A stretch of DNA of 64,000 nt from a virus (IMGVR_UViG_3300028653_000016:6395-70394), one strand, 5' to 3'. Shown: positions 6,238-34,733, counted from the first letter of the stretch. Translations and numbers: made by a program. Notes: generated by a model from the sequence alone, not told the origin.

Positions 6238-6275
6238 ATATGGTTATCTCCTTGTTTGAGTACATTGTGTATGTT

Positions 6276-6308
6276 CATATACACAATTTTATTATACTTT
6301 TTACAAGG
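6276..6308 (-). promoter_or_regulatory. conserved motif CTTGTAAAAAGTATAATAAAATTGTGTATAT, copy 1 (probable phage promoter/operator)
   Basis: Near-identical copies at about 14835, 34546 and 60998. Confidence 0.6.
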
Positions 6309-6465
6309 ATTCTTTTGTAGGAAAATGCTCCTTAAGGAACTCTCTACGAACTTTATAATACTCTTGGTTACATTTCTTGCAATTACCACTCTTAGTACGA
6401 CCTACCTCAGCTATAATATGCCCTTTGGAACAAGTTTCTTTAGCTGGAAAACCATGTTTAGACAT
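6301..6465 (-). CDS. mini single-Zn-module protein, copy 1 (54 aa)
   Basis: MSKHGFPAKETCSKGHIIAEVGRTKSGNCKKCNQEYYKVRREFLKEHFPTKESL; two paralogs in the window. Confidence 0.8.
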   Translation of the reverse strand: MSKHGFPAKETCSKGHIIAEVGRTKSGNCKKCNQEYYKVRREFLKEHFPTKESL

Positions 6466-7084
6466 TATCTACCACCTTAGAAATTCCATTTTCTTTAATA
6501 ATTTCAAATGTTTTAGAAGCACTTCTAGTAATAGTCTCACTATGAGAAATTAAAATAAGCTGCAAATTGAGCTTCTCACAAAGAATTTTAATGAATTCAG
6601 CTACTTTCTCTTGATCCTTTACCGACACATGTTTAAATGCCTCATCAGCAATAATAACCTTGGATAACTGGGGTTGCCACTTTGTTAAAAGGGCCACCCG
6701 TAACACGAAAGAAACTGCATCAGCTACTCCACCACCCATACTGTTTAAAATATCAAAAGTTTGACCATTCTGAGCATCCAATATACCCATCTCAAGTGTC
6801 GGTTGGTTATTCTTATTTGTAAGTTGCATTTTAAACTCAAGGTTAGGATCTTTAATTGTTCTAAGTGCATCAGTCACAATTCCACTAATCTTATCTAGTA
6901 CTTGCAAACGAGTCTCATCCGAAAGTGACTGGAGGAACAAGGATGCCTTAGCTAAATGATCTTCATTAACTGTTAGCTCTATAACTTTTTGATCTAAAGA
7001 AGCCTTTCGCTCTTTTAGACTCTCAAGTTGGCCAACCTTACGGTTGAACTCTTGTTGAATCTGTTTAAATTGCTCGAATATCAC
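6458..7084 (-). CDS. SbcC/Rad50-like ATPase, C-terminal half
   Basis: Coiled coil, signature-like SMGGG, Walker B IIADE, H-loop LISHS; GTG 7084 is a likelier start than 7117. Confidence 0.8.
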   Translation of the reverse strand: MIFEQFKQIQQEFNRKVGQLESLKERKASLDQKVIELTVNEDHLAKASLFLQSLSDETRLQVLDKISGIVTDALRTIKDPNLEFKMQLTNKNNQPTLEMGILDAQNGQTFDILNSMGGGVADAVSFVLRVALLTKWQPQLSKVIIADEAFKHVSVKDQEKVAEFIKILCEKLNLQLILISHSETITRSASKTFEIIKENGISKVVDNV

Positions 7085-7319
7085 TGAGTACCTTATCCAA
7101 TTGTTCTTGCAATGCACTCACTTCAGCCTGGATAGCTGCTTCCTCATTTTTAAGTGTTTGCTCAATAGCTTCAGGTGCAATACCTAGCTCTTTAGCTTCT
7201 AACAGCAGCTTCTCTTTTTCTTGTTCAAGCCCTTGAAGCTTTGTTTGGTTAGCTACCCGTAAATTATTAAGCTGTTCACCTTTAGATTTTAAAGCTAGTA
7301 GATCATTTTCAATACTCAT
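7065..7319 (-). CDS. small coiled-coil protein of the SbcCD cluster
   Basis: 84 aa heptad-rich ORF between SbcD and the SbcC C-half. Confidence 0.7.
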   Translation of the reverse strand: MSIENDLLALKSKGEQLNNLRVANQTKLQGLEQEKEKLLLEAKELGIAPEAIEQTLKNEEAAIQAEVSALQEQLDKVLSDIRAI

Positions 7320-8236
7320 CGTAACTCCTCCTTAGCCTGTTCCACTTTCTCTAAACACAAATCCAATATCTCTTTAAGCATACCACTTTTCTTTCCCTCT
7401 GTCAAGACCACTTGAGATACATCCACGTTTTCAAAACTTGCACTCTCCAAGCTATCTACAAAGTTTTGGAGATTCATTTCTGTACTCTTTAACTCTGCAG
7501 CACTAGCTAAATCAAATATTTCGCTGGCTGGCAATGAACTCTTTAGCTGATGAGGAGTAATCATACCTGTCACTGTATCTAAAATGAACACTTGCGGTTG
7601 CCATTGTTCATTTATAGCCCATCGACTGATAGAGCCTGGATTAACAAATGCTGTAATTCCTTCAAAATGAGAAAAAGCCTTATGATAATGACCAAAAACA
7701 AGAACTTGAGCATTAGTCTTTATCTGAGATGGTAACACAGCATCAAATGGGACTTGATGGGGAATGCAAAAATTATGGCTGCACACAATCTTATAATAAT
7801 CCTTAAACTTATCGTCAAAGAAATAATCCCCCTGTTTTGGATCTAAATAGGCATGAATACCTCGGAGCACAATTTTCTCTTTCTCAAATACCAATTCATC
7901 TAATCGCTCAATAGCTTGCGATTCCATCAGTACACCTAGCCCATTATTCTTATCTGAGGTAACGTAGGCATTAATATCGTGGTTGCCGATCAGACTGAAC
8001 AATGAGCAAGGCAAAGTTTTACACCAAGCTACCACATCGTTAACAAGTTGGAATGAAACCCTAGTATTATCAAAGAAATCACCCAAACTCACCATCATAT
8101 CTACTTTGTTAGCTGCAGCAATATCTCGAATTTCCCCAAGCTCCTGAAATTGGCTCTCATAATGATTGTCCAGCCTCCACTTGGGACGATCAGACAAACT
8201 TCGAAGATGAAGATCACCTATTAGAAGAATTTTCAT
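7316..8236 (-). CDS. sbcD: SbcD/Mre11-like metallophosphoesterase nuclease
   Basis: GDLH, GDFFD, GNHD, GHYH and NPGS motifs. Confidence 0.88.
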   Translation of the reverse strand: MKILLIGDLHLRSLSDRPKWRLDNHYESQFQELGEIRDIAAANKVDMMVSLGDFFDNTRVSFQLVNDVVAWCKTLPCSLFSLIGNHDINAYVTSDKNNGLGVLMESQAIERLDELVFEKEKIVLRGIHAYLDPKQGDYFFDDKFKDYYKIVCSHNFCIPHQVPFDAVLPSQIKTNAQVLVFGHYHKAFSHFEGITAFVNPGSISRWAINEQWQPQVFILDTVTGMITPHQLKSSLPASEIFDLASAAELKSTEMNLQNFVDSLESASFENVDVSQVVLTEGKKSGMLKEILDLCLEKVEQAKEELR

Positions 8237-8421
8237 CTATACACCTTTTCACAAGAACATTCCTCATAATCATAAGCATTATATTCTAGAAGATTCTTAT
8301 GGCACCCACCACTATTTCTTTTGTCGCATATACTATAATGATACTGAGTTTTTTTAACTAAATCATCATAAGTCAGATGAAAAGTAAGCTCATGGCCACA
8401 TTTACAAAGTTTATTCATCAA
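8233..8421 (-). CDS. Cys/His microprotein (CxCGH family, no terminal DNL tail)
   Basis: CKCGHELTFH...C...CSCEK. Confidence 0.65.
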   Translation of the reverse strand: MMNKLCKCGHELTFHLTYDDLVKKTQYHYSICDKRNSGGCHKNLLEYNAYDYEECSCEKVYR

Positions 8422-8776
8422 CTTTCTCTTCCTTCTTCACCAAATGAACATATACTTTCAAATCTTTAGCATTAGCCTTATTCAACATATCCTTGCTTCC
8501 CTTACTCAAACCATCCCAAACTAAAATAAGTGCTTCTGCATCTGCAGCCATTAAACTGTTTCTTATAGGTCCAGCCTTCTTACCAAATGTGTCCCAATCA
8601 GGACAATAGAATCTAACAGGAATTCTATTCTTATTTGCCCAAGCTTCTCCTAATGAATCAGGTCCCATAGCTCCACCTGAAAAAACCTCTGTAATATCAA
8701 AGCCGCTAAGCTTAATAGCCTTCTCAAGCTCTAATGGATCTGTAATTGTTCTACTACCAGCAATGATTACACGCAT
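8411..8776 (-). CDS. DUF2493 / YspA-like SLOG protein
   Basis: RVIIAGSR...SGGAMGPD..GE.WA...GKKAGPIRN..MA...WDG.SKGS. Confidence 0.85.
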   Translation of the reverse strand: MRVIIAGSRTITDPLELEKAIKLSGFDITEVFSGGAMGPDSLGEAWANKNRIPVRFYCPDWDTFGKKAGPIRNSLMAADAEALILVWDGLSKGSKDMLNKANAKDLKVYVHLVKKEEKVDE

Positions 8777-8958
8777 AAATCTTCGAGGTACTTTAAATTG
8801 TCTCTTTTAAAATCATTACAAGAACACTTCTTAATTGAGTAAGTCCAATCTCCATAGCAAGCATTTAATAAAATATTACCTTCTTCATCGAGCCAACCAA
8901 TATCATGCTTTTCAGCTTCATGACCACATTTACAATAATCAATTACTTTTATGCACAT
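8767..8958 (-). CDS. Cys/His microprotein, DNLxYLE family
   Basis: CKCGHEAEKH...CSCNDFKRDNLKYLED. Confidence 0.75.
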   Translation of the reverse strand: MCIKVIDYCKCGHEAEKHDIGWLDEEGNILLNACYGDWTYSIKKCSCNDFKRDNLKYLEDLCV

Positions 8959-9139
8959 ATTGTTCCTCTAAATATTTTAAATTATCTGGTGTATATTTTT
9001 TACATTTATGATCTGTAGTATAATGTGTTTTTCTTAAATCTACTCGCAATCCTTCAAAGCATTCCCCGAGAGCCCAAAAACTATTATCACGGCTATGCAT
9101 TTCTTTTATATGCCCACAAACACAAGGATAACTATTCAT
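8939..9139 (-). CDS. Cys/His microprotein, DNLxYLE family
   Basis: CVCGHIKEMH...CKKYTPDNLKYLEE. Confidence 0.75.
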   Translation of the reverse strand: MNSYPCVCGHIKEMHSRDNSFWALGECFEGLRVDLRKTHYTTDHKCKKYTPDNLKYLEEQYVHKSN

Positions 9140-9297
9140 ACCCTACTCTCTAAATAAATAAGATTATCATTACTTTCCCAATTATTGCATCTACAATTGG
9201 TATGCTCACAGATTCTTTTCAAATCTTTAAGAATGAGAAAAGAAGTAACGTGCCAATGCTTGCAATTTCTACAACGCCATTTATTAAAGTCTACCAT
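9136..9297 (-). CDS. Cys/His microprotein, DNLxYLE family (53 aa, missed by ORF track)
   Basis: MVDFNKWRCRNCKHWH...CEHTNCRCNNWESNDNLIYLESRV; fills the gap exactly with stop/start overlaps. Confidence 0.7.
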   Translation of the reverse strand: MVDFNKWRCRNCKHWHVTSFLILKDLKRICEHTNCRCNNWESNDNLIYLESRV

Positions 9298-10547
9298 TAT
9301 AAATTAACCGTTTCCTGATTACAAACTGGGCATGTACCATTTAATCTAAGCATTTCACTATACTGTTCCTTAGCCTCTTGATACTGCTGCTCAACTCGTC
9401 CCAACTCTTCGGTTTTACCTAATAGTTCCTTTTGATTCTTACCTATCCTAACTGATAAATCCTTAATCTTCTTTAAGTCAGACGCTTTCTCAGCCAATAC
9501 AGGTATAACAGAAATATCAACAGGTGTCAATAGATTATTTATCCTGCTTTGTGCAGAGTACATTCCCTGCCAAGCATTGTACTTGTCATTTAACATAATC
9601 AGTTTCTTTACTCTATTCACCTTTGGCTCTAATTGGCTAATTGAATCAAGGTCTATTTGGGTTAAAAGAACTTGTAGTTTAGTTTGATGCTCAAACGTAT
9701 ACTGATGATTTACAAATTTGCTATGAAATGTTCTAATTTTTCCAATCTTATCCACTCTTTGGGCTAATTGATCTATATTACTAAGGTCAATATTGACTAG
9801 AAGGGCCTCCTTTTCTGTTTCAGCTACCCAGTTAGCCCTTAAGATAGATACACGCTCAAATAGGCTCTGGATTCGCTGCAATCGGGCTTCCTGAACACTC
9901 AAAGAACTCAAACGAGCCTCTATATCACTTATCTGGCTACTGAAAGTCTCAATTGGAGCTAATTTATCAATTTGACTATTTAAATCAACTACTTCTAACT
10001 CTTTAGAACCCTTTTCCGCTGTAGTTTGTCTTTTATCTTTATTAAGTTCTCTTATTGCATGATCCAGGAAAGTTGCACCTGAAAGCTTACCCAAAATACG
10101 AGCACGAAGACTGGGAACTGAGCTTAACAGGAACAGGTTGTCATGCTGCAGGGCTACATTGAGGTTTAGGGACTCTGCAGCATCAATCTGTACCTCATGA
10201 ATCTTTAAGGCTTGCTGAATCGCTTCAGGTACACTTGTTCCAAATGATTCAAAGACCTGTGGTTCTTGATTAGGGAGTATAAGGGTATATTTATTAACCT
10301 TATCTCCCTTTTCACGCAACACAGTTATACCTGTACTAGTCTCAAGAGTTATCTTACAATACTTAGCCCCAAATCGAACCCAACTTTTATCCCACGGCGA
10401 ACCCATTAAGATGAACTGAAGGGCTCGACTGATCGACGATTTTCCAGCGTTACTTAATCCAACAATTACGTTCAAACCTTTGTCAAGATTAAATACAGAT
10501 TTCTCGTGTGATTGGAAATCTTCTAGAGTTAAAGTTTTAAGAAACAT
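9297..10547 (-). CDS. SbcC/Rad50-like ATPase, N-terminal half ending at the Zn hook
   Basis: LEDFQSH, Walker A GLSNAGKS, Q-loop, coiled coil, terminal CPVC. Confidence 0.85.
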   Translation of the reverse strand: MFLKTLTLEDFQSHEKSVFNLDKGLNVIVGLSNAGKSSISRALQFILMGSPWDKSWVRFGAKYCKITLETSTGITVLREKGDKVNKYTLILPNQEPQVFESFGTSVPEAIQQALKIHEVQIDAAESLNLNVALQHDNLFLLSSVPSLRARILGKLSGATFLDHAIRELNKDKRQTTAEKGSKELEVVDLNSQIDKLAPIETFSSQISDIEARLSSLSVQEARLQRIQSLFERVSILRANWVAETEKEALLVNIDLSNIDQLAQRVDKIGKIRTFHSKFVNHQYTFEHQTKLQVLLTQIDLDSISQLEPKVNRVKKLIMLNDKYNAWQGMYSAQSRINNLLTPVDISVIPVLAEKASDLKKIKDLSVRIGKNQKELLGKTEELGRVEQQYQEAKEQYSEMLRLNGTCPVCNQETVNL

Positions 10548-12749: not shown

Positions 12750-14057
12750 TTAGCAAAGCTCGTGATTAAAAGGCTTGATGATCTTCTGATATTTCTTTTC
12801 TTTATCTGCTTCAGCGACGAAAAGCCAACGACTATCTCCTACGACGAATTTAGAATTTGTTTCCCACATAACCTGCACAGGATTATTACTCATAACTCCC
12901 ACACCCTGAGCATAACTATCTGTCCCGATCATGCTGCCATTAATAATAATCTGAATTCCTGAGTTAGTCTGAAAGTGGCAAGCCTGATGTACATGTCCAA
13001 AAACGAAAAGTTGAAACGGCTTTCTATGGTGGTTACGTTCCTCTTCGTTGACTCGGTGCGCCTGAATTTCAATTCGTTCTGTGTTAATACTCTTTCCAGG
13101 ATTACCTGTGATAAATACTCCATCCGAGTGAGTCATATATACTCGATGCTTTTGAACGCGCAATTCTGCATAAGGACTCTTAGGAACAATCACTTCTACT
13201 TTCGGATCTTTAGAAAAGTACTTAGCCAAAGAATAGAATATAATATTCTCAAAGGAGTCATACTTCTGTGAAAGAGCACGACCTTTATCAGATTTATGCA
13301 TCATGCGACCATGATTACCTGGCTGGCAAACAATACGAATCTTGGGAAAGAAATTCTTCACATATTCGAATCCTTGAATAAAATAACTTAATGCTCCATT
13401 GACTTGATGTGTAATCAAATCATAATCTGGACCTTCTTGATTATGGATAATTCCACCAATCAAATCTCCTCCAAGAAGAAACACCACTTCTTCATGCAGA
13501 GCACGTTGCTCCATCTTATAGGTAGCCAACTGATCCATAATAAACCCAAAACGACGAGCTGCTACTTCCCAATTGAACTCATTCTTACCACCCAATTCAT
13601 CTTTATCAATAAATGTACCAAAGTGAACATCAGTAAGAGCTACACAAAGAGAACGGGGTGATCCATCATGCAAATCCTTTGTGGCAACACCCTTAATGTA
13701 CTCCATAGTTGTCTTTTCATCAAGAGTAACTGGTTCTACCTTAATGTTTTTAAGAGTTTTAACTAAAGAGTCAGTTAAATTATCTGCGAACAACTGCCAA
13801 CTCCCAAAACGCTTTTCGAGGCTAGTCAAATAACCTTGTCTTGCTTTTAATAGCTGAATCTCTTTTAGATCTTTTTCATAAGGAAAATATGTAGAAACAA
13901 TTGTCTGGAATCCTCCAACAGAACGCAATTGCCATGGGGAAATTCCTGACAGTTCGATAAATTTTGCTTTCGATAATTCTGATGGATGATTTAATCCAAG
14001 ATTGCTTGAAATCTTTTCTATTTTGTTAACAATATCAGTAACTAGTTTATTTGCCAT
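12750..14057 (-). CDS. calcineurin-like metallophosphoesterase
   Basis: TDVHFG, GGDLI, PGNHGR, THSD, FGHVH, NGS..G.D.Y. Confidence 0.85.
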   Translation of the reverse strand: MANKLVTDIVNKIEKISSNLGLNHPSELSKAKFIELSGISPWQLRSVGGFQTIVSTYFPYEKDLKEIQLLKARQGYLTSLEKRFGSWQLFADNLTDSLVKTLKNIKVEPVTLDEKTTMEYIKGVATKDLHDGSPRSLCVALTDVHFGTFIDKDELGGKNEFNWEVAARRFGFIMDQLATYKMEQRALHEEVVFLLGGDLIGGIIHNQEGPDYDLITHQVNGALSYFIQGFEYVKNFFPKIRIVCQPGNHGRMMHKSDKGRALSQKYDSFENIIFYSLAKYFSKDPKVEVIVPKSPYAELRVQKHRVYMTHSDGVFITGNPGKSINTERIEIQAHRVNEEERNHHRKPFQLFVFGHVHQACHFQTNSGIQIIINGSMIGTDSYAQGVGVMSNNPVQVMWETNSKFVVGDSRWLFVAEADKEKKYQKIIKPFNHELC

Positions 14058-14796
14058 TTAAATTCTCCTTATTGTTTCTATCTATATAATTAGCCAATCG
14101 TCTTAAAATTTCAGGACTATCTAATAATTTTCCAATAGCTGTATTACAATCTTCACACAATAAACCCCTTATTCTACCTGTCTTATGATCATGATCTACA
14201 GCAAAAGCTCTTTTAAATTCAGATTGATCTCGTAAGCAACCAATACATTTACCCTCTTGACTAAAAAATATCTCATTATAATCATCTAATGTAATACCAT
14301 ATTGCCTTTTAAGCCTATCATTACGTCTTTCATTTAAATGCAATGCAGCATATTTTTTCTGATAATCACTAACACATTTTTTGCAGTTACCTCTTTTTGT
14401 TCGACCAAAAATAAAAATATCGTGCCCATGAGGACAAAATTGTTTAAGTCTAGAATCTTTCGTAGGATCTATACGACGTAATTCCTCACACTTTATACAT
14501 TTATCATATTTAGTTCTTCCACACTCAAAAGTATCATGATTTCTTGGACAGAATTGTTTAATTGAAGAATTTTTAGTTGGATCTATACGCCGATCTAAGG
14601 AACATCCTAAACAATTACCTCCATTATCTCTACCGACTATTGCTATTTCATGACCATGGATACAAAATTCTTTTCTCTGAAATTTATGAAAACATATTGA
14701 TGAGCAATATTTAGTTTTTTCTACCCTTGCTTTTGGAACATAAAATTCTATTCCACAAATCTCACAATTTATAATTTTTCCATCTCTTTTATTCAT
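14047..14796 (-). CDS. Endonuclease VII-family nuclease with a TRASH-like finger and 3 tandem C-x2-GH...C-x2-C modules
   Basis: RQYGIT...C.GC...AVDHDH.TGRIRGLLC..CN.AIG; start 14796 has a GGAG RBS. Confidence 0.85.
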   Translation of the reverse strand: MNKRDGKIINCEICGIEFYVPKARVEKTKYCSSICFHKFQRKEFCIHGHEIAIVGRDNGGNCLGCSLDRRIDPTKNSSIKQFCPRNHDTFECGRTKYDKCIKCEELRRIDPTKDSRLKQFCPHGHDIFIFGRTKRGNCKKCVSDYQKKYAALHLNERRNDRLKRQYGITLDDYNEIFFSQEGKCIGCLRDQSEFKRAFAVDHDHKTGRIRGLLCEDCNTAIGKLLDSPEILRRLANYIDRNNKENLNGK

Positions 14797-14832
14797 ATAA
14801 TTCTCTCCTTGTATAAGTCCATCGTGTATTAT

Positions 14833-14866
14833 CATATATACACAATTTTATTATACTTTTACAAGG
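14833..14866 (-). promoter_or_regulatory. conserved motif CTTGTAAAAGTATAATAAAATTGTGTATAT, copy 2
   Basis: Matches copies 1, 3 and 4. Confidence 0.6.
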
Positions 14867-15017
14867 ATTTAGGGAAGTTATCTTTAACAAACTGTCTCCT
14901 TACTTTATAATAATCACTTTTACACTGTTTGCAATTACCTGATTTGGTACGGCCTACTTCAGCAATAATATGTCCTTTAGAACATGTTTCTCTAGGTTGA
15001 AAGCCTCTTTTACCCAT
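14859..15017 (-). CDS. mini single-Zn-module protein, copy 2 (52 aa)
   Basis: MGKRGFQPRETCSKGHIIAEVGRTKSGNCKQCKSDYYKVRRQFVKDNFPKSL. Confidence 0.8.
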   Translation of the reverse strand: MGKRGFQPRETCSKGHIIAEVGRTKSGNCKQCKSDYYKVRRQFVKDNFPKSL

Positions 15018-16437: not shown

Positions 16438-17103
16438 TTAGAACGGAAAGCTACTTGTTCTCTTAGGTGCCACAGGTGCTGGTGCAACTGGTGCTACCAC
16501 TGGCTGAGTTGCAATAGGCTGGACTGGTGCTGCCAGAGGTTGCATAGGACTAAATGCAAGATTGACTCCAGGAGCATTTGCAATAATTGGTGCAGGGACC
16601 ACTGGAGCTACAATAGCTGCAGGTGCCATATGAACAACAGGAGCACTTGCCTGTACAGCTACCTTAATAGGACCTGCTGGAGGAAGCTGCGCCAAGAATC
16701 CCTGAAGAACCTGGGTATCAACATCGTTCATCGGGAGCAAATCCGTGACCCCTTGCTTTGTCCCACCTGATTCCTTTTCCCATGTCTTCAATAGAATCTT
16801 AACGTAAGCTCCAACTAGCATATCTGTATCAAACTTAGTCTCATCTGCAAGCTGCTCTCTACTATAGCCCAAAACAGCCCCCCATGCAGTAATACGAGCT
16901 TTAGGTGTTGGAACTGTGCCTGTTGTTCCCCATACCCAAACCTTTTTACCTAAAAACGGAGGTTGGCAAATTTCAAATGTCCAATTAAATGTAATATTCT
17001 CCTCACTCCATTTCTTCAGTTCAATTTTCTTAATCTGAGCATAGTACAAATTGTCAGGTACTTCTACCTTTTCTCTTGGTTGGTAACTTCCTAGTTTTGC
17101 CAT
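16438..17103 (-). CDS. putative ssDNA-binding (OB-fold, DUF669-like) protein with Pro/Ala/Val tail
   Basis: VPD..Y.A.I..IE...W.FEI...GKKV pattern; low-complexity tail ending FPF; close to recA. Confidence 0.55.
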   Translation of the reverse strand: MAKLGSYQPREKVEVPDNLYYAQIKKIELKKWSEENITFNWTFEICQPPFLGKKVWVWGTTGTVPTPKARITAWGAVLGYSREQLADETKFDTDMLVGAYVKILLKTWEKESGGTKQGVTDLLPMNDVDTQVLQGFLAQLPPAGPIKVAVQASAPVVHMAPAAIVAPVVPAPIIANAPGVNLAFSPMQPLAAPVQPIATQPVVAPVAPAPVAPKRTSSFPF

Positions 17104-17126: not shown

Positions 17127-17642
17127 TTAAAAAGTCTTTAGCGTACCACGTTGCAAATTACTACCACTATTTCCTTGCAAATTTTGATCGAGCTGTACGA
17201 CTGTGATCTGCCTAGACAAATTACTATTAGCAGACTCCAAATTAGAATGCACGAGCTGGATGCACTTCATAAACCACTGACCCTTAATTAAAGAAATGTC
17301 CCTATGATGCAGGTCTAATACTTTTTCAGGCATCTTGATACGGGCAGCTACATTTCTAGCATCAGCTGATTTAGCAGCTAGACAGGACTGCTCTGTGACC
17401 ATAAGAAGCTCAAGTTGCCTATCATGTTCATTCTGACAAATTTCTTTAAGGATCTCCAACTCGGCAACATTCTTCATTGCTTCTAGCAGTAAGGAAGTGA
17501 CACGATCCTTGGCCAGTTGCATTTCGGTTAGCTTCAAATTCAAACTAGCGAGCCCTTTGGTCGTCGGATCAGGATCAAGGATCACTTGGATCTTCTTTAC
17601 TTCTTCCAATCGTTCTGCCATCTGTTCTTCTGATAGAGCCAT
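17127..17642 (-). CDS. helical protein, possible UvsY-like recombination mediator
   Basis: Coiled-coil character and position beside SSB/RecA only. Confidence 0.35.
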   Translation of the reverse strand: MALSEEQMAERLEEVKKIQVILDPDPTTKGLASLNLKLTEMQLAKDRVTSLLLEAMKNVAELEILKEICQNEHDRQLELLMVTEQSCLAAKSADARNVAARIKMPEKVLDLHHRDISLIKGQWFMKCIQLVHSNLESANSNLSRQITVVQLDQNLQGNSGSNLQRGTLKTF

Positions 17643-22349: not shown

Positions 22350-22694
22350 TTATAAATCAAAATAAGACCAATCTTTCTTATTAAAAAATCTAACTATTCT
22401 AAAACCAAACCAATTATATCTATTCTTAAGAATGGGCAAAAGAATAGCAGCTCTCCCTTTGTCATAAGCTCCACTACTAGAAGACTGAACAATATTATTT
22501 AATTGATTAATTATCCACTCAATTGTTTGTTTTTTCCATGGTTCCCAACCCCCGCTACTTTCATTAAATACATCGTCAAGAATATGTTGAAGATATCTTT
22601 TTTGATCTTCCCATTTAGTTATTGAAAACACAAATAACGTGACAATACTAACAACTAAACTGCTCAGGTCAACACAAACATGGAAAAATTTCAT
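22350..22694 (-). CDS. hypothetical membrane-anchored protein
   Basis: N-terminal hydrophobic helix. Confidence 0.5.
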   Translation of the reverse strand: MKFFHVCVDLSSLVVSIVTLFVFSITKWEDQKRYLQHILDDVFNESSGGWEPWKKQTIEWIINQLNNIVQSSSSGAYDKGRAAILLPILKNRYNWFGFRIVRFFNKKDWSYFDL

Positions 22695-25600: not shown

Positions 25601-25813
25601 CCCTTTATCCCATAAACCAAGCTGTACCCGAATCTCTTGAGGGATTTCCTTGCTAAGCCATACATTCTTATATTGCCCAAGCACCTTATAATAAGCTTGG
25701 CAAAATCTTTCAAATTCGTATCCATCCATTCCAGGAACATTTCCCTGTGGAAGTGTAGCTAAATAAGAATAGTACGAATCCCAAGTAGGTTCAATCTTAG
25801 TTAAATTTTCCAT
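22691..25813 (-). CDS. restriction endonuclease-SF2 helicase fusion (type ISP-like, no methyltransferase) with C-terminal NUMOD/AP2-like DNA-binding domains
   Basis: G..FE...D.GID...AIQCK; PCGWGKS, FDEAH, TATP, CLTEGIDVP, QAAGRAMR; C-terminal FGRL.V..C.CDCG..SCGC x2. Confidence 0.85.
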   Translation of the reverse strand: MENLTKIEPTWDSYYSYLATLPQGNVPGMDGYEFERFCQAYYKVLGQYKNVWLSKEIPQEIRVQLGLWDKGDHGIDLVLEDFQGKLSAIQCKFHRDQQGSLDWNGDKLGNLFLEGEKADYRIIFTNVAGISEYTEKFDKWEFVGFETVATIETEVFGQILALLDEKVSEVVRAPKKPRPDQLEALNAILAGFREGDKGQLLVPCGWGKSLEALWVYEEGKFDRALILVPSLSLLKQTKNVWNANRKDLSVPYLCICSEYDIDKEAEDGTKVYKKSEDDAEIRLHSVDSRVTTDVKVVKDFLKNNPKAIVYSTYQSFHVLEKLVKGKKALPFGLTVFDEAHKTVGESKRAFTLPLDIKLNLGKRLFQTATPKVYKDGVKTSQVLKGFQVFDMADEKVYGKPFYKMSFRQAIDLKLLAPYKIVITGLTDEDLQKLIKDRTYGHTKDGSLLNFETAANHIALNKVMAEYHAKHAITFHSTISNAKAFQKDHAAISGFGGQVVHVNGEQSASERLGTMNTFKASQDAIMTNARCLTEGIDVPNIDLVMFCDPKKSKIDIVQAAGRAMRIDKNNPDKQAVILLPVYFKDTATMESEIDESVFKDVKAILNALQDVDEVLMAEINALKTGDGKRKVTPDSRGSSGAKEEKILEISTYIPSMEDKIFTVVRESIYQNSDGNKQRIRDWITKHIYKGQHYLPSRHIEDTEEYQLAVLLTNYTIDSDSNKSYDSIFAQEMAPYKRLIDLELNEKFLQAKEFCDKVGYRPYSRKKDEKEIAEFMHAVLQKSICTEKPEYFEYFSKIPSRRDFVFNSNLKKLEQFCEINKYLPSQISPNSEERFLAHFYQILNFRKHPSFSAFQKFPTTKTFFKQTDLIGKVFGRLTVEKLNNIDEKGQYTWVCKCDCGNTKIVRRSILESGGTQSCGCIRKSDGLEIGTRFEKLVILNREGFNKYNTILYRVKCDCGTEKVVDEQSLLRGHTKSCGCFNRELQRKISIEKSPLHHLGHRKNDDSYTFIITLEGKTHRKYFRTKEEAIEYRDKFMKENGLL

Positions 25814-25847: not shown

Positions 25848-27013
25848 GGGATATTTTTCACCTCTAGGTAAGGAATAAAGGGTAGACACATCAATGTTGT
25901 CAAACCTGAAATAATAATCAACCCATTATACCCAAATAAAGCAAAACACTTTGCCCCTACTATATTTGAAAAGAAAGAAGCACAATTAACAAGTGAGCAT
26001 AACAAAGCATAAGTTGTTGCTTCCGTTTTTTCTGGGCAAGTCATGGCCATGAGATTTAGCATAGTTAAATGAACAAATTGCGTAGCGATCCCAAAAATAA
26101 TAGCATACCATAAAATCGTAGTAGGAGTTAAATACAAGTAAGCAAAAGTTCCAATTGCACTTATAAGTGTTCCATAGTATAACCAACGTTTCATATCAAT
26201 ATTTTTACTCACTTTAAAGTATACTATAGCCCCCACAATTCCACAAGCAGATCCAATAGTATCTAACCAACCGATATACACTTTCGACATGTGCAGACCA
26301 TTTAACATTTTATCTAGCAAAGGAGTTCCAAAAGAAGGACTAAACCAAAGGAAAAATAGAAATAAACTGCAAAGAAGAATCTGTTTATTTTTTAATTTTG
26401 CTAAAAAATCCTTAATTATAGGCCCAACTGCCTTTTTAGTCTTTTCAGATTTCACTTCAGGGTATCTAAGAGCCATTATAGCGATTAGAATAGGGAAAAT
26501 AGCGAGAATTATATAAGCAAGATGGTAAGAAGCCTTTTCTGCGATATAACCTCCAGAAACGCCTGTAAGAACGCTTCCAACGCCTAAAGCAGCCCATGTC
26601 ACAGATTGAAAGCGGCCAGTTGTACCATCTTTATTACCTGCTTCAATTCCCATGCCATTTACAGCTACATTTCCACCTGCTTCCCCAATAGATCCAACAA
26701 TCATTAAGCCAATTAAAACAGACAAGGAAATAAAAGGAGATACACCAATAACAAGAAATGCGAGAGTGCCTAAAATGGCAAATAAAACAACATAGCTTTT
26801 CCTACGGTAGCCAAAGATACTTATAGAATCACTAAGAATCCCCCACACTGGTTTTATCATCCAAGGTATATTGGCTAAAGCCCCAAGCATCATGATTTGG
26901 GATACCGAAATCCCAAGGGTCTCCCTTAAAAAACAAAAAAGAGGCAGAGAAGCAAGCCCTCCAATCCCCTGATTAAAAAATACGAGAATAGCTAAGACGT
27001 ATAGAAAATTCAT
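25844..27013 (-). CDS. MFS transporter, folate-biopterin (BT1/FBT) family-like
   Basis: PWMIKPVWGILSD...FGYRRKSY; CP...EAT.YALL.S..N; about 12 TM segments. Confidence 0.85.
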   Translation of the reverse strand: MNFLYVLAILVFFNQGIGGLASLPLFCFLRETLGISVSQIMMLGALANIPWMIKPVWGILSDSISIFGYRRKSYVVLFAILGTLAFLVIGVSPFISLSVLIGLMIVGSIGEAGGNVAVNGMGIEAGNKDGTTGRFQSVTWAALGVGSVLTGVSGGYIAEKASYHLAYIILAIFPILIAIMALRYPEVKSEKTKKAVGPIIKDFLAKLKNKQILLCSLFLFFLWFSPSFGTPLLDKMLNGLHMSKVYIGWLDTIGSACGIVGAIVYFKVSKNIDMKRWLYYGTLISAIGTFAYLYLTPTTILWYAIIFGIATQFVHLTMLNLMAMTCPEKTEATTYALLCSLVNCASFFSNIVGAKCFALFGYNGLIIISGLTTLMCLPFIPYLEVKNIP

Positions 27014-27201
27014 TTACTCATTTCTTCTAAATACTTTAAATTATCACCTTTAAAATTATGATAATTTGTTTCACGATCTCTATGAGTTTGCTCAAAACAT
27101 TCCTCACACCAAAAATCTACATTAAAATATCGCTTATGAATATTATCGTGATGCTTAGATAACAAATGACCGCAGAGACAAGGGTATTCTAAATTAGTCA
27201 T
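27010..27201 (-). CDS. Cys/His microprotein, DNLxYLE family
   Basis: CLCGHLLSKHH...CEEC...FKGDNLKYLEE. Confidence 0.75.
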   Translation of the reverse strand: MTNLEYPCLCGHLLSKHHDNIHKRYFNVDFWCEECFEQTHRDRETNYHNFKGDNLKYLEEMSK

Positions 27202-30503: not shown

Positions 30504-30508
30504 GGACT

Positions 30509-31381: not shown

Positions 31382-31386
31382 ATTTA

Positions 31387-31415: not shown

Positions 31416-31510
31416 GAGTTATTTTAAAATAACTACAATTGTATATAATTTCAGTCTAGATTATATGCTAAAGTATATAATCCTATCCTATTTTGATATG
31501 TTTTAGCATA

Positions 31511-31810
31511 TCATTTCTTAGGGAAATTTGGATCACTGCAGCAGCCATCACAACCGTGAATACCTCTGCTATGCCCTATATAATGAGGACAGGAATATTC
31601 AGGACCGTCTGACATTCTCTGGAAAGGCCAATTCCAAGGCTTATCTTTCTTCTTGGATTTCTTTATTAATCCCTTATCCTCAGCTTTTTCCTCAAGTAAA
31701 GACAAATTATCCGATTCAAACGTATGATTAGCATTCTCTTGGCAATACATGCAAATAGGCCATGCCCCAATTAAATGCTTACTCTTGTAATGGCCACATT
31801 TACAAATCAC
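31511..31810 (-). CDS. Cys/His microprotein with internal DNLSLLE and an extra C-terminal Cys/His domain
   Basis: CKCGHYKSKH...CMYC...DNLSLLEE...CPH.IGH...HGCDGCC. Confidence 0.7.
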   Translation of the reverse strand: MICKCGHYKSKHLIGAWPICMYCQENANHTFESDNLSLLEEKAEDKGLIKKSKKKDKPWNWPFQRMSDGPEYSCPHYIGHSRGIHGCDGCCSDPNFPKK

Positions 31811-32073
31811 TTTCTCTTCTCCTTAGCTTTCTCTTCCAAATATCTCAAATTGTCTCTCTTGAAAGATTCACAATTGCATTGGGTACATTTCCATTCTTCC
31901 TGTGTACCTTCCGAAAGGTACTTTTTCCAAAATTTCTCTCTATCTACCATGCTAGATTCTTTATACCCTTCAAGCTGCTTATCCAGCCTATCCCAAGCCT
32001 TTTTACCCATCTCAGTATGCTGAGTATTTGAATGGCCACAAATACAAAAAGATTTTTCAATCTCTGGATTCAC
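31807..32073 (-). CDS. Cys/His microprotein, DNLxYLE family
   Basis: CICGHSNTQH...CTQCNCESFKRDNLRYLEE. Confidence 0.75.
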   Translation of the reverse strand: MNPEIEKSFCICGHSNTQHTEMGKKAWDRLDKQLEGYKESSMVDREKFWKKYLSEGTQEEWKCTQCNCESFKRDNLRYLEEKAKEKRK

Positions 32074-32257
32074 TTAGTTGCTCCAAGTATTTAAGATTAT
32101 CTGGCACAAATTCATGGTACATGTAATCCACATTTATTAATTTAGGATGATCCTCCGTTGATAAAATATTCCAACATGAGGTACAATACATATCACTAGC
32201 ATTATCACACCTATGATATCTTCCTGTATGCCCACATATGCAAGGGAAATTATTCAA
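32057..32257 (-). CDS. Cys/His microprotein, DNLxYLE family
   Basis: CICGHTGRYH...CTSC...FVPDNLKYLEQ. Confidence 0.75.
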   Translation of the reverse strand: MNNFPCICGHTGRYHRCDNASDMYCTSCWNILSTEDHPKLINVDYMYHEFVPDNLKYLEQLSESRD

Positions 32258-33123
32258 AGGACACCTCTCCTTACACTTTTCTTAATATGATCTTTATACC
32301 AATAAGGACGATAATTAGTATAGTGAAAGCATTTAAGTCTATCTTCCTCTTTACTCAAATCAAAGTTATTACAACCAATAATATGATCAAATTGCCATTT
32401 ACCTTTTCCTTGTCCATGGTTATTCCAATTCATGCCTTCTGTGAATTGAGACTCTATATGTTTTATAAATTCTGGAATTGTGCATCCCAAATAAGGCTCT
32501 AATAATTTAGACCTAGAATTTCTGTTTACAGCTTTGCCCAAGTTAGCTATTAATCTCAATCTCCAGTACATGTGCTCTTCGTAATTCTCCGTTTTAGCTG
32601 AGGTTCTTCTATTTTGAGATTGCTTTTTTACAGTAGACCATTCACAATTGACAAGTGTATAATTACCATCATTGTCTATTCTGTTAATACTTGTATTCTT
32701 TTCTCCAAATTCTTTAGCATGTTTAAGATACAAGGCATACATATCATCTCTAAAATTTTCAAATTCCATCCATCTTTCACAAACAGTAATTCCTCTACCG
32801 CCATAATTATAATAGTCTTTATCTGAAATTGTTAGACAACGTTTCTTCATCATATGCCAAATTGTATAAAATCTCGTTGTACTCATGCCATGGGTTTTAT
32901 GTTTTTTACCATTTTTCGTGGATATTTCACTTCGTAAACAACCACAAGATCTTGTTATTCCTTGTTTTAAGCTACTAGCAGTAACATTCCGAACAGTTCC
33001 ACAAGTACATCTGCAAACCCACAAAATAATATTCCTTATACGACTATCTCCTTGTTTAAGAACAGTCCATCTACTAAAAGTTTGACCAGTAAGATCTTCA
33101 AAATTATATGAATGCCTACTCAT
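32254..33123 (-). CDS. free-standing HNH-type homing endonuclease (two nuclease-like domains)
   Basis: DLTG..F.RWTV..C.C.CG; YGGRGI.VCERW; RIDNDGNY; C-terminal GMNW.NHG...W.FDHI...CFHY.N. Confidence 0.8.
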   Translation of the reverse strand: MSRHSYNFEDLTGQTFSRWTVLKQGDSRIRNIILWVCRCTCGTVRNVTASSLKQGITRSCGCLRSEISTKNGKKHKTHGMSTTRFYTIWHMMKKRCLTISDKDYYNYGGRGITVCERWMEFENFRDDMYALYLKHAKEFGEKNTSINRIDNDGNYTLVNCEWSTVKKQSQNRRTSAKTENYEEHMYWRLRLIANLGKAVNRNSRSKLLEPYLGCTIPEFIKHIESQFTEGMNWNNHGQGKGKWQFDHIIGCNNFDLSKEEDRLKCFHYTNYRPYWYKDHIKKSVRRGVL

Positions 33124-34508
33124 AGCAGTATCTCCCCAATAGCTTTAACTGGAATAAGCTTATACAAAGGTTCTTTAGAATACACACTAATACGTGAACT
33201 AGTATGGCTTTCTAAATATTTAACACCACTATCACAAATGTCAACTACGACAGCCTTTGTTTTGCCTTTAGAAAGACGTAATGTTCTACCTAAAGCTTGA
33301 TATGCTGCCACTGTAGACGCTTCAGCTCTCGCGGTAATCAGAACATCTAATTTTACAATATCTACACCTTCTCCTAAAATATTAGAACTAATAATTAACT
33401 TCCTAGTTCCTGCTTTAAATTCTCGTAGCACTTTTAAACGTTTCTCAGGTTCAGTACTACCATGGATAAATACTGCTTCAGGATATACTTTCTCCAAAAT
33501 CTTTAAAAGATTTTCACCATGTTCAATATAATTAATCAAAATTAAAGTACTTTTATCAGCCTTCACTGCTTTCATAGCGATATCAATAACTAATTTATTT
33601 CTTTCATGGTTATTTGTAATCTCAGTGGAATAAATTTCTGAATAGGGCATTCCTTTTCTAGCCTTTCTCTCATGTTTAAAATCATAGAGAAAAATTTCTG
33701 GGGGAACTAGCCAACCATCCTGAATAAGTTTCGATGCATTAATATCTACAAATTTTTTAGCTGCAAATCCATCTAATAAAATTCCCATATTATCTTCTCG
33801 CCAATCGGTTCCTGTAAAAAGATACCTGTAATATGCTTTAGGACAAGCTTGAGCTACTTCCCAATAAGTTTCGGAAGGAGCATGGTGTCCCTCATCTCCG
33901 ATTAATACGTCAACTAAAGGAAAAAAATCTTTCAACTCATGTGAAGATTGCACCATAGCCACAGTAATATTTTGAATATCAACCACACCTGCTCCTACAC
34001 TCCCAATAGGTACTTGCAATATTCGTTCAAGAGTTTCTTTAATCTGCTGCATAATTTCTTGCCTATGAATTAAAATAAGAGTAGTGAGATTCAATTTACC
34101 AGTTAAAGCAGCAATGCAAGTAGTCTTCCCACCACCTGTAGAAATTCTTATAACTCCCCGTTCTCTTTTTATCGCTTCTTCTACACTTTGTTCCTGATAA
34201 GGTCTAAGAGTTACATTATGCAAAGGAAGAGAGGGCTGCTCTTTAGGTTTTACTCGCAAATCTATATGCTCATATTCAATATGATGTTTATCTAACACTT
34301 CTCTTACCATCCAAACCAGACCTGTAGCAAAAGACATTCCTTTTTTAGTGAAAAAATGCTTCTTTCCATCCCAATATGGATTTCGTTGCTGAGCATAATA
34401 ACTACCCACTACTTCTGCTGATAACTTATTATAGAGAGCAGAGATAATCTTAGGATCAAGATCCCCCACTAGTTTTGATTTAATGTTACTTACTTCAATT
34501 GTTATCAT
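33120..34508 (-). CDS. SF2 DNA helicase (UvsW/XPB-like)
   Basis: LRPYQ, STGGGKT, GDEGHH, TGT..RED, GEGVDI, QALGRTLR. Confidence 0.9.
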   Translation of the reverse strand: MITIEVSNIKSKLVGDLDPKIISALYNKLSAEVVGSYYAQQRNPYWDGKKHFFTKKGMSFATGLVWMVREVLDKHHIEYEHIDLRVKPKEQPSLPLHNVTLRPYQEQSVEEAIKRERGVIRISTGGGKTTCIAALTGKLNLTTLILIHRQEIMQQIKETLERILQVPIGSVGAGVVDIQNITVAMVQSSHELKDFFPLVDVLIGDEGHHAPSETYWEVAQACPKAYYRYLFTGTDWREDNMGILLDGFAAKKFVDINASKLIQDGWLVPPEIFLYDFKHERKARKGMPYSEIYSTEITNNHERNKLVIDIAMKAVKADKSTLILINYIEHGENLLKILEKVYPEAVFIHGSTEPEKRLKVLREFKAGTRKLIISSNILGEGVDIVKLDVLITARAEASTVAAYQALGRTLRLSKGKTKAVVVDICDSGVKYLESHTSSRISVYSKEPLYKLIPVKAIGEILL

Positions 34509-34545
34509 ATTATTTTCCTTATAATTAGCATAATCTATGGTATCT

Positions 34546-34579
34546 ATATATGCACAATTTTATTATACTTTTTACAAGG
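34546..34579 (-). promoter_or_regulatory. conserved motif CTTGTAAAAAGTATAATAAAATTGTGCATATAT, copy 3
   Basis: Matches copies 1, 2 and 4. Confidence 0.6.
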
Positions 34580-34733
34580 ATTCTTCCTTTGGAAAATGCT
34601 CCTTAATGAATTCTCTACGAACTTTATAATAATCACTTTGGCATTTCTTACAGTTACCAGATTCTGTATGTCCTACCTCTGCTATAACATGACCTTTTGC
34701 ACAAGTAGGTTTAACTTTAGGACCTGACTTCAT
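34572..34733 (-). CDS. mini single-Zn-module protein, copy 3 (53 aa)
   Basis: MKSGPKVKPTCAKGHVIAEVGHTESGNCKKCQSDYYKVRREFIKEHFPKEESL; GGAGG RBS. Confidence 0.8.
   Translation of the reverse strand: MKSGPKVKPTCAKGHVIAEVGHTESGNCKKCQSDYYKVRREFIKEHFPKEESL

Follow-up and report, generated by a model that had tools for sequence, protein, structure and literature searches.

The seg and mob genes of T4-like phages are free-standing homing endonuclease genes, and T4 endonuclease VII (gp49), a small resolvase of Holliday junctions, has no zinc-module arrays. In T4 I-TevI, I-TevII as well as I-TevIII, T4 segB and Aeh1 mobE a late promoter lies inside a hairpin that sequesters the ribosome-binding site (RBS), and I-TevI is an autorepressor acting at an operator which overlaps its own late promoter (PMC2988022, in the sections available to us). 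Promoter-early stem-loop (PeSL) cassettes of T4-type phages, as the available sections of PMC2839356 and PMC4122927 present them, combine sigma-70 consensus early -35/-10 promoters with G/C-rich terminator stem-loops and flank ORFans.

The window, i.e., the whole 64,000-nucleotide stretch of viral DNA analysed here, contains three copies of a small zinc-finger gene (mini), each standing in front of a larger gene. We consider it reasonably probable that these copies represent a portable regulatory leader in the style of T4, which belongs to cassettes of free-standing homing endonucleases and occurs in a clade of large phages from soil and peat. All genes of the three-copy region are on the minus strand:

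4917..5468, minus strand: HNH-motif protein, 183 aa, directly behind nuclease 1
5446..6237, minus strand: nuclease 1 (endoVII-1), 263 aa, CxxGH zinc-module array and C-terminal Endonuclease_7 (E 5.8e-21)
6301..6465, minus strand: mini gene 1, encoding a CHCC zinc-finger protein of 54 aa that is basic
14047..14796, minus strand: nuclease 2 (endoVII-2), 249 aa from the start supported by a Shine-Dalgarno sequence (SD), zinc-module array and Endonuclease_7 (E 1.3e-25)
14859..15017, minus strand: mini gene 2, 52 aa
32254..33123, minus strand: HNH endonuclease-like gene, 289 aa (PHROG HNH endonuclease, E 2e-56)
33120..34508, minus strand: superfamily-2 DNA helicase, 462 aa (ResIII/Helicase_C), served by module 3
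34572..34733, minus strand: mini gene 3, 53 aa

The three paralogs of 52-54 aa reported in the preliminary description are real: all of them terminate in TCCTTGTAA, followed by AA(A)GTATAATAAAATTGTG, share 72-73% pairwise identity and have invariant C12, H16, C29 and C32. Their upstream neighbours are an SMC-like C-terminal ORF (6458-7117, its stop overlapped by the start of mini gene 1), RecA (E 1.1e-87, its stop 6 nt ahead of the mini gene 2 start) and an 84-aa Cys-rich ORF, the end of which is overlapped by mini gene 3. The same description correctly placed copies 1 and 2 ahead of endonuclease VII genes and copy 3 ahead of a helicase, and the kinship it saw between mini and the nuclease arrays holds, the N-terminal arrays matching mini at E 1.3e-7 to 0.68.

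For nuclease 2, an SD supports the start at 14796 and not the one at 14835, which would give the longer ORF. The two nucleases are only 31% identical. Nuclease 1 can be read as a free-standing homing-endonuclease-like gene. In a relative (L041) that lacks nuclease 1 between orthologous neighbours, the SMC-like C-terminal ORF is immediately succeeded by the ortholog of the HNH-motif gene, which makes this gene the site's resident neighbour on the downstream side. The HNH endonuclease-like gene at 32254..33123 overlaps the helicase stop, is also homing-endonuclease-like and has no module of its own. The PHROG class of the cargo genes in the window and its relatives is endonuclease VII or HNH, and L047 has a GIY-YIG domain; these predicted nuclease domains belong to families used by homing endonucleases.

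The minis are real genes and evolve under purifying selection: dN/dS over their core lies at 0.04-0.20, 210/210 mini pairs show pN lower than pS, and pS between the window paralogs is 0.49-0.90. Forty-one small homologs were found in metagenomes, none of them assigned to a Pfam or PHROG family; searches with mini against Foldseek, PDB sequences, Atlas, Pfam and PHROG gave no match. In the AF2 model (pLDDT 85.6) a CxxxH knuckle is combined with a CxxC that opens helix 30-47, as would be expected of a treble-clef zinc finger, with two ligands in a knuckle and two in the first helix turn. Foldseek returned no match at E <= 0.001 for this model; its best hit, the ClpX zinc-binding domain (TM 0.45-0.52), lies above that threshold. 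All 42 aligned minis have a pI of 9.1-10.5, and the N-terminal arm is AT-hook-like. Mini is a basic protein, probably one that binds nucleic acid, and is akin to the DNA-binding modules of the nucleases next to it. It looks like a single binding module without the nuclease, together with its linker helix.

Each mini is part of a module of about 240 bp which consists of an RBS, the mini ORF, a TATAAT-type motif, a stem-loop and the SD that serves the following gene; the motif's upstream portion runs over the final codons of mini and its stop. The elements of the window are:

6249..6309, minus strand: regulatory element 1 (fold -18.7 kcal/mol, z -4.76): anti-SD made of the last mini codons and stop (6303-6309), TATAAT hexamer (6291-6296), inner 9-bp stem-loop, 3' arm with the endoVII-1 SD (6249-6255)
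14806..14867, minus strand: regulatory element 2 (fold -20.5 kcal/mol, z -4.68): anti-SD, TATAAT motif (16-mer at 14841-14856), stem-loop, endoVII-2 SD
34516..34580, minus strand: regulatory element 3 (fold -17.7 kcal/mol, z -3.07): anti-SD, TATAAT motif (16-mer at 34553-34568), stem-loop, helicase SD
34509..34748, minus strand: whole solo module 3 (RBS, mini 3, motif, hairpin, SD), 240 bp that are inserted in comparison with L037

The search for related loci returned 27, with a free mini in 23. Together with the three window copies, the order of stop, TATAAT, hairpin, SD and ATG is kept in 26/26 cases, within a gap of 62-84 nt. In the predicted RNA, at least four of the six SD bases pair 5' of the hexamer in all 21 distinct loci, as compared with just 3 of the 11 motif copies that have no mini. 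The leader that the preliminary description saw in copies 1 and 2 is indeed shared, and can now be described as the 3' arm of this hairpin. The folding z-score has a median of -3.4, with single loci ranging from -0.75 to -5.4. The two arms co-vary: cognate arms fold at -18.9 and non-cognate ones at -14.5 kcal/mol, and none of 10000 permutations was as good, in a chimera test that ignores relatedness. Covariation is based on this test, as RNAalifold gave no consensus structure on the MAFFT alignment. When 61 window genes were ranked by SD occlusion, with endoVII-2 left out because of its ORF-start issue, the helicase came first and endoVII-1 only tenth. The anti-SD is an RNA/DNA element: its sequence persists in the DNA of four loci where the mini ORF ends early (L014, L018, L022, L028), and 35 bp do not vary among the window paralogs, although their synonymous sites are nearly saturated. 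A terminator search at 6240-6310 called none; the stems are AT-rich and have no T-run.

The hexamer lies 3' of the anti-SD, so an RNA started by the predicted promoter would lose the 5' arm. The median probability of the SD being unpaired is 0.18 in the long RNA vs 0.69 in the promoter-initiated one. We propose that on transcripts reading through from promoters further upstream the last part of the mini ORF would pair with the nuclease SD and the nuclease would therefore stay untranslated, while RNA from the internal promoter, free of the 5' arm, would be translatable. Ribosomes completing the mini ORF may also melt the 5' arm and allow limited translational coupling.

The motif itself is not confined to the cassettes. 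The 16-mer GTATAATAAAATTGTG has three exact occurrences in the window, each right behind a mini. With up to 3 mismatches, five matches are found vs 2.1 expected (6 of 100 shuffles reach five), and a 28-mer that includes the end of the mini ORF gives two matches vs none in 100 shuffles, a search that misses copy 2, which has one A fewer. One of the inexact copies has no mini and precedes a structural gene:

61005..61020, minus strand: fourth motif copy, 2 mismatches, 103 nt upstream of the tail-sheath gene
58638-60902: tail-sheath/Ice-binding-like gene, 754 aa, downstream of the fourth motif copy

Orthologs of this copy exist in G002 and G005, and five related genomes (G000, G002, G003, G004, G005) have the motif upstream of their tail-sheath/Ice-binding gene. 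Copies are oriented (8 forward and 1 reverse in G003, 8 and 0 in G004), and a reversed-pattern control gave 0-1 in these two genomes. Thus the 30-bp motif is a clade-wide promoter-like element and not a cassette-specific one. It is probably of late class, since the same motif stands ahead of the tail-sheath gene, i.e., of one structural gene family. Its promoter status rests on position, orientation and conservation. A sigma-70 scanner did not call the motif, which lacks a -35; sigma-70-like TTGACA-N17-TATACT promoters are present at other places in the window. Metatranscriptome contigs from two runs, which cannot reveal transcript starts, covered parts of RecA and a 435-aa gene, with none on mini 2 or nuclease 2.

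Comparison with relatives shows that the modules are located at gene starts within the replication and recombination cluster and that the cassette is not fixed, since each of the three window sites has syntenic relatives without it. The cargo behind the module is a homing-endonuclease-like gene in 19 of the 21 distinct loci and the helicase in the other 2; the nucleases are of endoVII, at least two HNH and PD-(D/E)xK-like types. The helicase site occurs in three states: empty (L037, L038), with the module alone (the window, L015) and with module plus nuclease (L012, where a 247-aa Zn-array/HNH gene lies between module and helicase). Site 1 is empty in L041, as noted above, and site 2 holds a different gene of 150-170 aa in L031-L035. 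Conversely, four or more sites that are occupied elsewhere (L013, L020, L005/L007, L004) are empty in the window. Between L005 and L007 the module is 81% identical in DNA up to the nuclease ATG, with different nucleases beyond, so the nuclease ORF alone can be exchanged behind the module. These presence/absence patterns support the mobility proposed in the preliminary description; the two-gene element proposed there is no obligate pair of mini and endoVII, given the L005/L007 swap and the solo minis before the helicase in two divergent phages.

The modules lie precisely at start codons; at the helicase site, a 6-bp ATGATA repeat containing the ATG of the helicase is found on either side of solo module 3.

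What does the mini protein do? It does not serve any single nuclease as a dedicated partner, and the promoter does not require it. Most likely it is an accessory protein, predicted to bind nucleic acid, that benefits the module or cassette, e.g., by dampening the promoter or shielding DNA.

A rival and less likely reading is that mini acts as a non-essential transcriptional autoregulator which binds the adjacent promoter and palindrome and reduces late transcription of whatever gene comes behind. The motif is joined to the mini gene in all 26 cases, the protein is basic with a zinc knuckle, a helix and an AT-hook-like arm, an inverted repeat (perfect over 9 bp in copy 1) directly follows the hexamer, and autorepression by I-TevI provides a precedent (PMC2988022, as far as its available sections go). 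However, the inverted repeat is not mini-specific, since it is also present in motif copies without a mini, and a trans-acting factor hardly explains three diverged paralogs in one genome. The motif also persists without mini: G003 and G004 have two minis each, with 6 of the 8 motif copies in each lacking one, and G002 (100% complete) and G005 (61% complete) have the motif and no free mini. This last observation, together with the motif before the tail-sheath gene, means that mini cannot be an essential factor for that promoter.

It is rather unlikely that the promoter and stem-loop are mainly a homology patch through which phage recombination swaps, adds or removes the gene behind, with or without the help of a nuclease, in the manner of PeSL shuffling and with mini as a passenger. 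Swap and insertion breakpoints do fall exactly at the module 3' end, the ATG (L005/L007, window/L012), and the motif occurs about 8 times per genome. Moreover, 35 bp are invariant among the window paralogs, whose synonymous sites are near saturation, a pattern that local gene conversion could produce as well. On the other hand, left breakpoints lie at gene ends and not at a second motif copy, the -35, G/C-rich stem and T-run of a PeSL are missing, and purifying selection on mini is left unexplained. The cargo is nearly all nucleases, which points to nuclease-driven spread.

Alternatively, the 240-bp unit could itself be the mobile element. It would insert at start codons, its zinc finger would mark or shield the site or gate the promoter, and the unit would serve as a landing pad where unrelated homing endonucleases are taken up, swapped and lost again. 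We regard this as doubtful; if it were true, selfish nucleases would have a small adaptor element that codes for a protein, a previously undescribed kind.

Still less probable is a two-gene unit in which the free finger controls, neutralises or guides its cognate nuclease. This would agree with a nuclease-like gene immediately behind mini in 19 of the 21 distinct loci, with the CxxGH zinc module that 12 of these 19 nucleases have in common with mini, and with a gene order that would yield mini before or alongside the nuclease. Yet at one site unrelated nucleases, an endoVII in L005 and one of HNH type in L007, stand behind minis that share about 84% identity (by eye), and mini 1 is closer to the modules of nuclease 2 (53%, E 1.3e-7) than to those of its own nuclease 1 (34%, E 1.4e-3). 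Helicase-site minis remain under purifying selection (dN/dS of 0.044 for the window vs L012 and 0.108 vs L015), solo copies among them. Zn-array nuclease genes of the relatives mostly have no mini: in G001 about ten array genes give 23 module matches, next to a single free mini, and the nucleases of L043, L047 and L048 have the motif without mini. The antitoxin-like role suggested in the preliminary description is therefore at odds with the solo minis, the mini-less nucleases and the single mini lineage found with different nucleases.

As a candidate class, toxin-antitoxin or controller pairs were rejected: pairing is neither obligate nor specific, with both solo minis and mini-less nucleases existing.

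That the mini ORF is a mere leader ORF, the translation of which opens the hairpin while the peptide has no function, is very improbable: all 21 loci do have the mini stop within the 5' arm or no more than about 17 nt ahead of it, so a terminating ribosome would melt the arm, but the strong selection on amino acids, the invariant residues C, H, C, C, G, Y and R, the confident AF2 fold and retention of the family across phages with core genes only 50% identical all argue against it.

The reading we prefer, a portable T4-style leader of homing-endonuclease cassettes, is best judged against the described systems. With gp49 (PF02945) the window nucleases share the catalytic domain, as both Endonuclease_7 matches listed above indicate, but they differ in having a homing-endonuclease build and a variable distribution. 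With the PeSLs, as described in the available sections of the two papers, the modules share a repeated composite of promoter and stem-loop, associated with variable genes and indel or replacement breakpoints; in contrast, the element here has no -35, its AT-rich stem pairs with the SD, and it includes a protein-coding gene and has nuclease cargo. PeSL membership was considered and rejected, as neither a sigma-70 consensus promoter (no -35) nor a G/C-rich terminator stem-loop (AT-rich, no T-run) is present.

Like T4 seg and mob genes, the cassettes lie between conserved core genes, are present or absent among close relatives, have HNH-superfamily or GIY-YIG nuclease domains, and the insert rebuilds the start of the downstream gene. 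They differ in that CxxGH zinc-module arrays or LTGQ-type repeats are the presumed DNA-binding parts, in that the catalytic domain of the window nucleases is Endonuclease_7, and in that many nucleases are preceded by a separate small zinc-finger gene; our literature search found no description of such a gene before homing endonucleases. As with the I-TevI autorepressor, the part of a homing endonuclease that binds DNA could act on its own cassette's promoter, although there it is the full nuclease that acts and here the candidate is a separate gene.

The closest resemblance is to the hairpins of I-TevI, segB and mobE as they appear in the available sections of the source. In both cases the nuclease gene lies within a longer transcription unit with its SD paired in read-through RNA (by prediction here), and a -10-only promoter (putative here) is placed so that its own transcript would lose the 5' arm. 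In our case a conserved zinc-finger gene supplies the 5' arm with its 3' end, and the module is reused at at least 10 genomic sites, with several nuclease families and also with a helicase. That phages restrain such nucleases by a promoter within a hairpin is known; what is new is a small zinc-finger gene joined to that front end.

The three copies of the short CHCC zinc-finger gene, here called mini, lie at the following positions:

6301-6465, minus strand: mini 1, 54 aa
14859-15017, minus strand: mini 2, 52 aa
34572-34733, minus strand: mini 3, 53 aa

All three ORFs claimed in the preliminary description are present in the window, together with their common ending TCCTTGTAA and the AA(A)GTATAATAAAATTGTG sequence that comes straight after it. 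The products are 72-73% identical in pairwise comparisons. A profile search has found 41 small homologues (42-79 aa) in metagenomes, none of them with a Pfam domain or an informative name, while an all-against-all search of representatives included 65 proteins: small free-standing forms and longer ones with 2-7 repeated mini matches, the latter being nuclease arrays of CxxGH zinc modules. C12, H16, G22, C29, C32, Y36 and R40 are invariant in the alignment of 42 mini sequences, and all 42 minis are basic (pI 9.1-10.5). Over a 36-codon core, pN is lower than pS in 210 of 210 mini pairs. The pS of 0.49-0.90 and dN/dS of 0.07-0.20 among the window paralogues mark them as old copies, maintained by purifying selection, and not as recent duplicates. 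Judged by their sequences, the mini ORFs are real genes.

The AlphaFold2 model of mini (pLDDT 85.6) has a knuckle followed by a helix (residues 30-47) with CxxC in its first turn, a predicted layout that resembles a treble clef. Nothing above threshold was found in Pfam and PHROGs (the weak matches were HNH_5, E 0.06, and DUF4762, E 0.058), PDB sequences gave 0 matches at E ≤ 1, a Foldseek comparison of the model with the PDB gave no match at E ≤ 0.001, and a search of the ESM Atlas returned unnamed clusters only. Minis define a new small-protein family that has no Pfam or PHROG entry. The GGTAGATAACAATG sequence recurring 5' of mini starts was rejected as a separate element, being the usual SD-spacer-ATG context in these phages.

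The source viral record comprises 70,394 bases, 64 kb of which are in the window, and its completeness is estimated by CheckV at 37%. The minus strand of the window is densely packed with genes, among them those for a DnaB-like helicase, RecA, SbcCD-like proteins, baseplate J, tail-collar and a tail-sheath-like protein. A megablast search of a phage collection with 10.7 kb of the window gave zero matches; viral contigs include syntenic relatives of 118-192 kb. Searching bacterial and archaeal genome contigs with mini gave a single weak partial match, restricted to residues 28-48. The family-A DNA polymerase (269-2827, minus strand) is fused to an N-terminal uracil-DNA-glycosylase-superfamily domain (Pfam UDG, E 6.7e-22). 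The SbcC/Rad50-like ATPase gene (6458-10547, minus strand) is split into an N-terminal ORF (9297-10547) and a C-terminal one (6458-7117), separated by several small ORFs, by genes for a 121-aa product and a Metallophos SbcD-like protein (7316-8236), and by an 84-aa coiled-coil ORF; since L031-L035 and L041, loci on related contigs, show the same gene order, this layout is conserved and is not an assembly error. A 1040-aa helicase (ResIII/Helicase_C; 22691-25813, minus strand) bears an N-terminal Mrr_cat_2 restriction-endonuclease-like domain, and the LTGQ-repeat nucleases of L018 and L020 are similar to part of it.

A second small Cys/His-rich family (about 55-90 aa, with C.CGH... near the start and ...F.LDNL.Y[IL]E... 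at the C-terminus) is scattered across the replication region:

34717-34971, minus strand: second-family gene
31807-32073, minus strand: second-family gene
32057-32257, minus strand: second-family gene
27010-27201, minus strand: second-family gene
8939-9139, minus strand: second-family gene

L005, L007 and L041 contain many copies, and such a gene is often located directly upstream of mini (window copy 3, L012, L015, L004). The 84-aa Cys-rich member has no Pfam or PHROG match. The sole Rfam match is a tRNA, a tRNA-Met (CAT anticodon) located between a 64-aa ORF and this 84-aa ORF (34944-35018, minus strand), and a tRNA-like sequence occupies the same position in L037-L039. Because the tRNA overlaps the TTG start chosen by the ORF finder, the true start of the 84-aa ORF is probably further in (MLPCYCGH...).

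Among paralogues close to synonymous saturation, 35 bp around the mini stop codon are invariant save one A. The motif 16-mer has exactly three exact copies in 64 kb, only at the window minis, and the 28-mer that reaches from the ORF end into the motif had 0 matches in 100 shuffles. In the predicted RNA folds of all three window copies, the 3' end of the mini ORF including its stop codon (UCCUUGUAA) is base-paired to the SD of the gene behind it, and the paired arms enclose the TATAAT motif along with a short inner stem-loop. Fold energies are -18.7, -20.5 and -17.7 kcal/mol for copies 1, 2 and 3 (z-scores -4.8, -4.7 and -3.1). A ranking by SD occlusion of the 61 window genes that have an SD puts the helicase behind mini 3 first and endoVII-1 behind mini 1 only tenth. 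The stem-loop was rejected as an intrinsic terminator, having no T-run and not being called as one.

Scans of viral and metagenome contigs have yielded 27 loci, of which four were left out: L008 is the N-terminal part of an array nuclease, L009 and L010 contain a high-GC protein of 128 aa whose module is C-terminal, and L029 has a broken frame. Stop, TATAAT, hairpin, SD and ATG are present in all 23 kept loci and the three window copies, with 62-84 nt from stop to start; as these gaps are not consistently multiples of three, a mini-nuclease fusion via readthrough or frameshift was rejected. Together these represent 21 distinct loci, and in every one of them at least 4 of 6 SD bases pair 5' of the hexamer in the minimum-energy fold. 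The median of the mean SD-unpaired probability is 0.18 in RNA containing the mini end and 0.69 in a shorter RNA that begins 12 nt past the first base of the hexamer. The mean energy is -18.9 kcal/mol with cognate arms and -14.5 kcal/mol after 3' arms are swapped between loci; 0 of 10000 permutations, uncorrected for kinship, equalled the cognate energy sum. RNAalifold predicted 0 pairs on a MAFFT alignment of the 21 elements, because the register of the anti-SD (the pairing arm 5' of the hexamer) shifts by 2-3 nt between sequence groups; single-sequence folds and the arm-swap permutation test were therefore used instead. In L014, L018, L022 and L028 the ORF stops early, yet the anti-SD is kept in the DNA, which makes it a nucleic-acid element and not a coding constraint.

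Domain searches bore out the neighbours claimed for the three minis: behind copies 1 and 2 lie genes for Endonuclease_7 proteins, only 31% identical to one another, that carry CxxGH arrays at the N-terminus, and behind copy 3 lies one for a superfamily-2 helicase. CxxGH-array proteins, whose catalytic ends are Endonuclease_7, HNH-like "DHI.PL..FDL" or HNH "DHVIPL", are the cargo at 12 of the 21 distinct loci. Other nuclease-like genes (LTGQ-repeat/HNH, endoVII with other zinc motifs, PD-(D/E)xK-like endonuclease) follow at seven and a helicase at two. T4 uvsW is a late gene and as such would offer a functional parallel for the helicase copy.

Comparison with relatives, suggested in the preliminary description as a way to find cassette-free sites, did reveal them at the helicase site (L037, L038) and at site 1, the insertion place of nuclease 1 (L041). 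The L037 and L038 helicases are 86% and 82% identical to that of the window; there, an 84-aa gene overlaps the helicase start, with neither mini nor motif, and the window has a 240-bp insertion (34509-34748) with ATGATA on both flanks. L015 has the module alone before a 50% identical, intein-containing helicase, and in L012 the order is module, a 247-aa array/HNH gene, helicase. The intein in this helicase of a distant relative (L015 926-2722; Pfam Intein_splicing, E 9.8e-11) includes an HNH-like segment and adds a third type of mobile element to those found at the helicase gene. At site 1, L041 has the orthologue of the 183-aa HNH gene immediately behind the SMC-like C-terminal ORF, mini and endoVII both being absent; DNA similarity to the window is too low here for exact breakpoints. 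At site 2, the place of nuclease 2, L031-L035 carry a 150-170-aa gene, by eye macro-domain-like, between RecA and a 435-aa exonuclease-like gene. Contigs from sequencing runs X19 (RNA) and X4 (DNA) match the 3' end of RecA (90% or more) and continue into unrelated sequence right past the RecA stop; there is a weak hint, suggestive at most, that at window 15029 (the left end of cassette 2) co-occurring relatives have another gene in the slot. RNA contigs of X18 and X19 cover portions of RecA and of the 435-aa gene, with mini 2 and nuclease 2 left uncovered; in X3 and X4, no contig was seen to join the two sides of the cassette directly. Contigs of this kind show neither transcript starts nor absence.

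Several sites empty in the window are occupied elsewhere: before the SMC-like N-terminal gene (L020), between orthologues of 17127-17642 and 16438-17103 (L005, L007) and before the DNA polymerase (L004). In L013, mini and a nuclease separate DnaB from the gene that follows, in a stretch of about 1.1 kb where the window has 25 bp. L005 and L007 share 81% DNA identity across the upstream gene, mini, motif and hairpin to the nuclease ATG, and are wholly different from there to about 20 nt before the nuclease stop. The exchange between them is confined to the nuclease ORF.

The TATAAT motif also occurs outside the cassettes:

61005-61020: fourth motif copy, two mismatches, without a mini

It is located upstream of a 754-aa gene (58638-60902, minus strand) whose product has a beta-helix domain like that of Pfam Ice_binding (E 3.5e-56) and resembles tail sheath in its C-terminal part (PHROG E 5.7e-37). 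The motif is present at the orthologous gene in the related genomes G002 (100% complete, no free mini) and G005, both of which hold several paralogous Ice-binding-like genes. G003 and G004 contain 8 forward and 0-1 reverse motif copies each (0-1 in the reversed-pattern control) and only 2 minis each. Other copies sit before Ice-binding-like genes, a GIY-YIG gene, two HTH-plus-zinc-array nuclease genes and unknown genes, and the consensus AAAaccCTTAAAAnTATAATAAAAT.tGGTATtAtTAGg is common to copies with and without mini. Lacking a -35, the motif is passed over by a sigma-70 scanner; typical TTGACA-N17-TATACT promoters are present elsewhere in the window. The sigma-70-like form cccTTGACA-N17-TATACT recurs intergenically near 36391, 37917, 31511, 30509, 29038 and 56234 (minus strand); these are probably early promoters, distinct from the TATAAT-only motif. 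The latter is probably a phage-specific promoter of the late class and provides a likely late-promoter consensus for these phages. The SD pairs with the pre-hexamer segment in 3 of 11 mini-less copies, two of the three belonging to zinc-array nucleases, so SD occlusion is a property of nuclease/mini contexts and not a by-product of the promoter sequence.

As for the role of mini, we would regard it as an accessory protein that binds nucleic acid and brings a benefit linked to its module. It may act on the promoter next to it as an autoregulator, for which I-TevI provides a precedent; it could also shield insertion-site DNA or bind the RNA hairpin. Recombination of the kind outlined for promoter-early stem-loops (PeSLs) in PMC2839356 may contribute to cargo exchange at the conserved motif, but the module lacks the features that define PeSLs. 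The boldest reading, in which the 240-bp module would itself be mobile and, with its protein-coding gene, act as a landing pad for nucleases, seems rather unlikely to us. As for the transcription factor-promoter unit proposed earlier, motif copies persist in relatives without mini, including G002, and mini was rejected as a factor required by the promoter. The data exclude a dedicated partner of one nuclease, such as a cognate antitoxin, as L005 and L007 share a module with different nucleases and solo modules exist; a meaningless leader peptide is likewise excluded.

Homing endonucleases shape phage genomes and are also a source of genome-editing enzymes. To our knowledge, their containment and route to new sites are known for a few T4-type cases only. 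The empty, module-only, module-plus-nuclease and swapped-nuclease alleles constitute ready-made constructs for probing the role of the small protein, and the same natural series could show whether a regulatory "front end" makes it easier for nucleases to colonise genomes.

The full texts searched describe no small zinc-finger gene at the head of homing-endonuclease cassettes and no such CxxGH arrays. The anatomy of the module matches the regulation described in PMC2988022 for T4 I-TevI, I-TevII, I-TevIII and segB and Aeh1 mobE: early and middle read-through transcripts keep the RBS sequestered, and the position of a late promoter prevents its own transcript from forming the hairpin. Unlike in those cases, the 5' arm here comes from the last part of a zinc-finger gene that is conserved, the module as a whole recurs at at least 10 sites before several nuclease families, and it can stand alone, in which form it would supply the helicase with a new promoter and SD. 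The T4 solution, a promoter within an RBS-occluding hairpin, thus seems to appear in an unrelated, uncultured phage clade as a reusable module that includes a conserved zinc-finger gene; what is new relative to the T4 scheme is the packaging.
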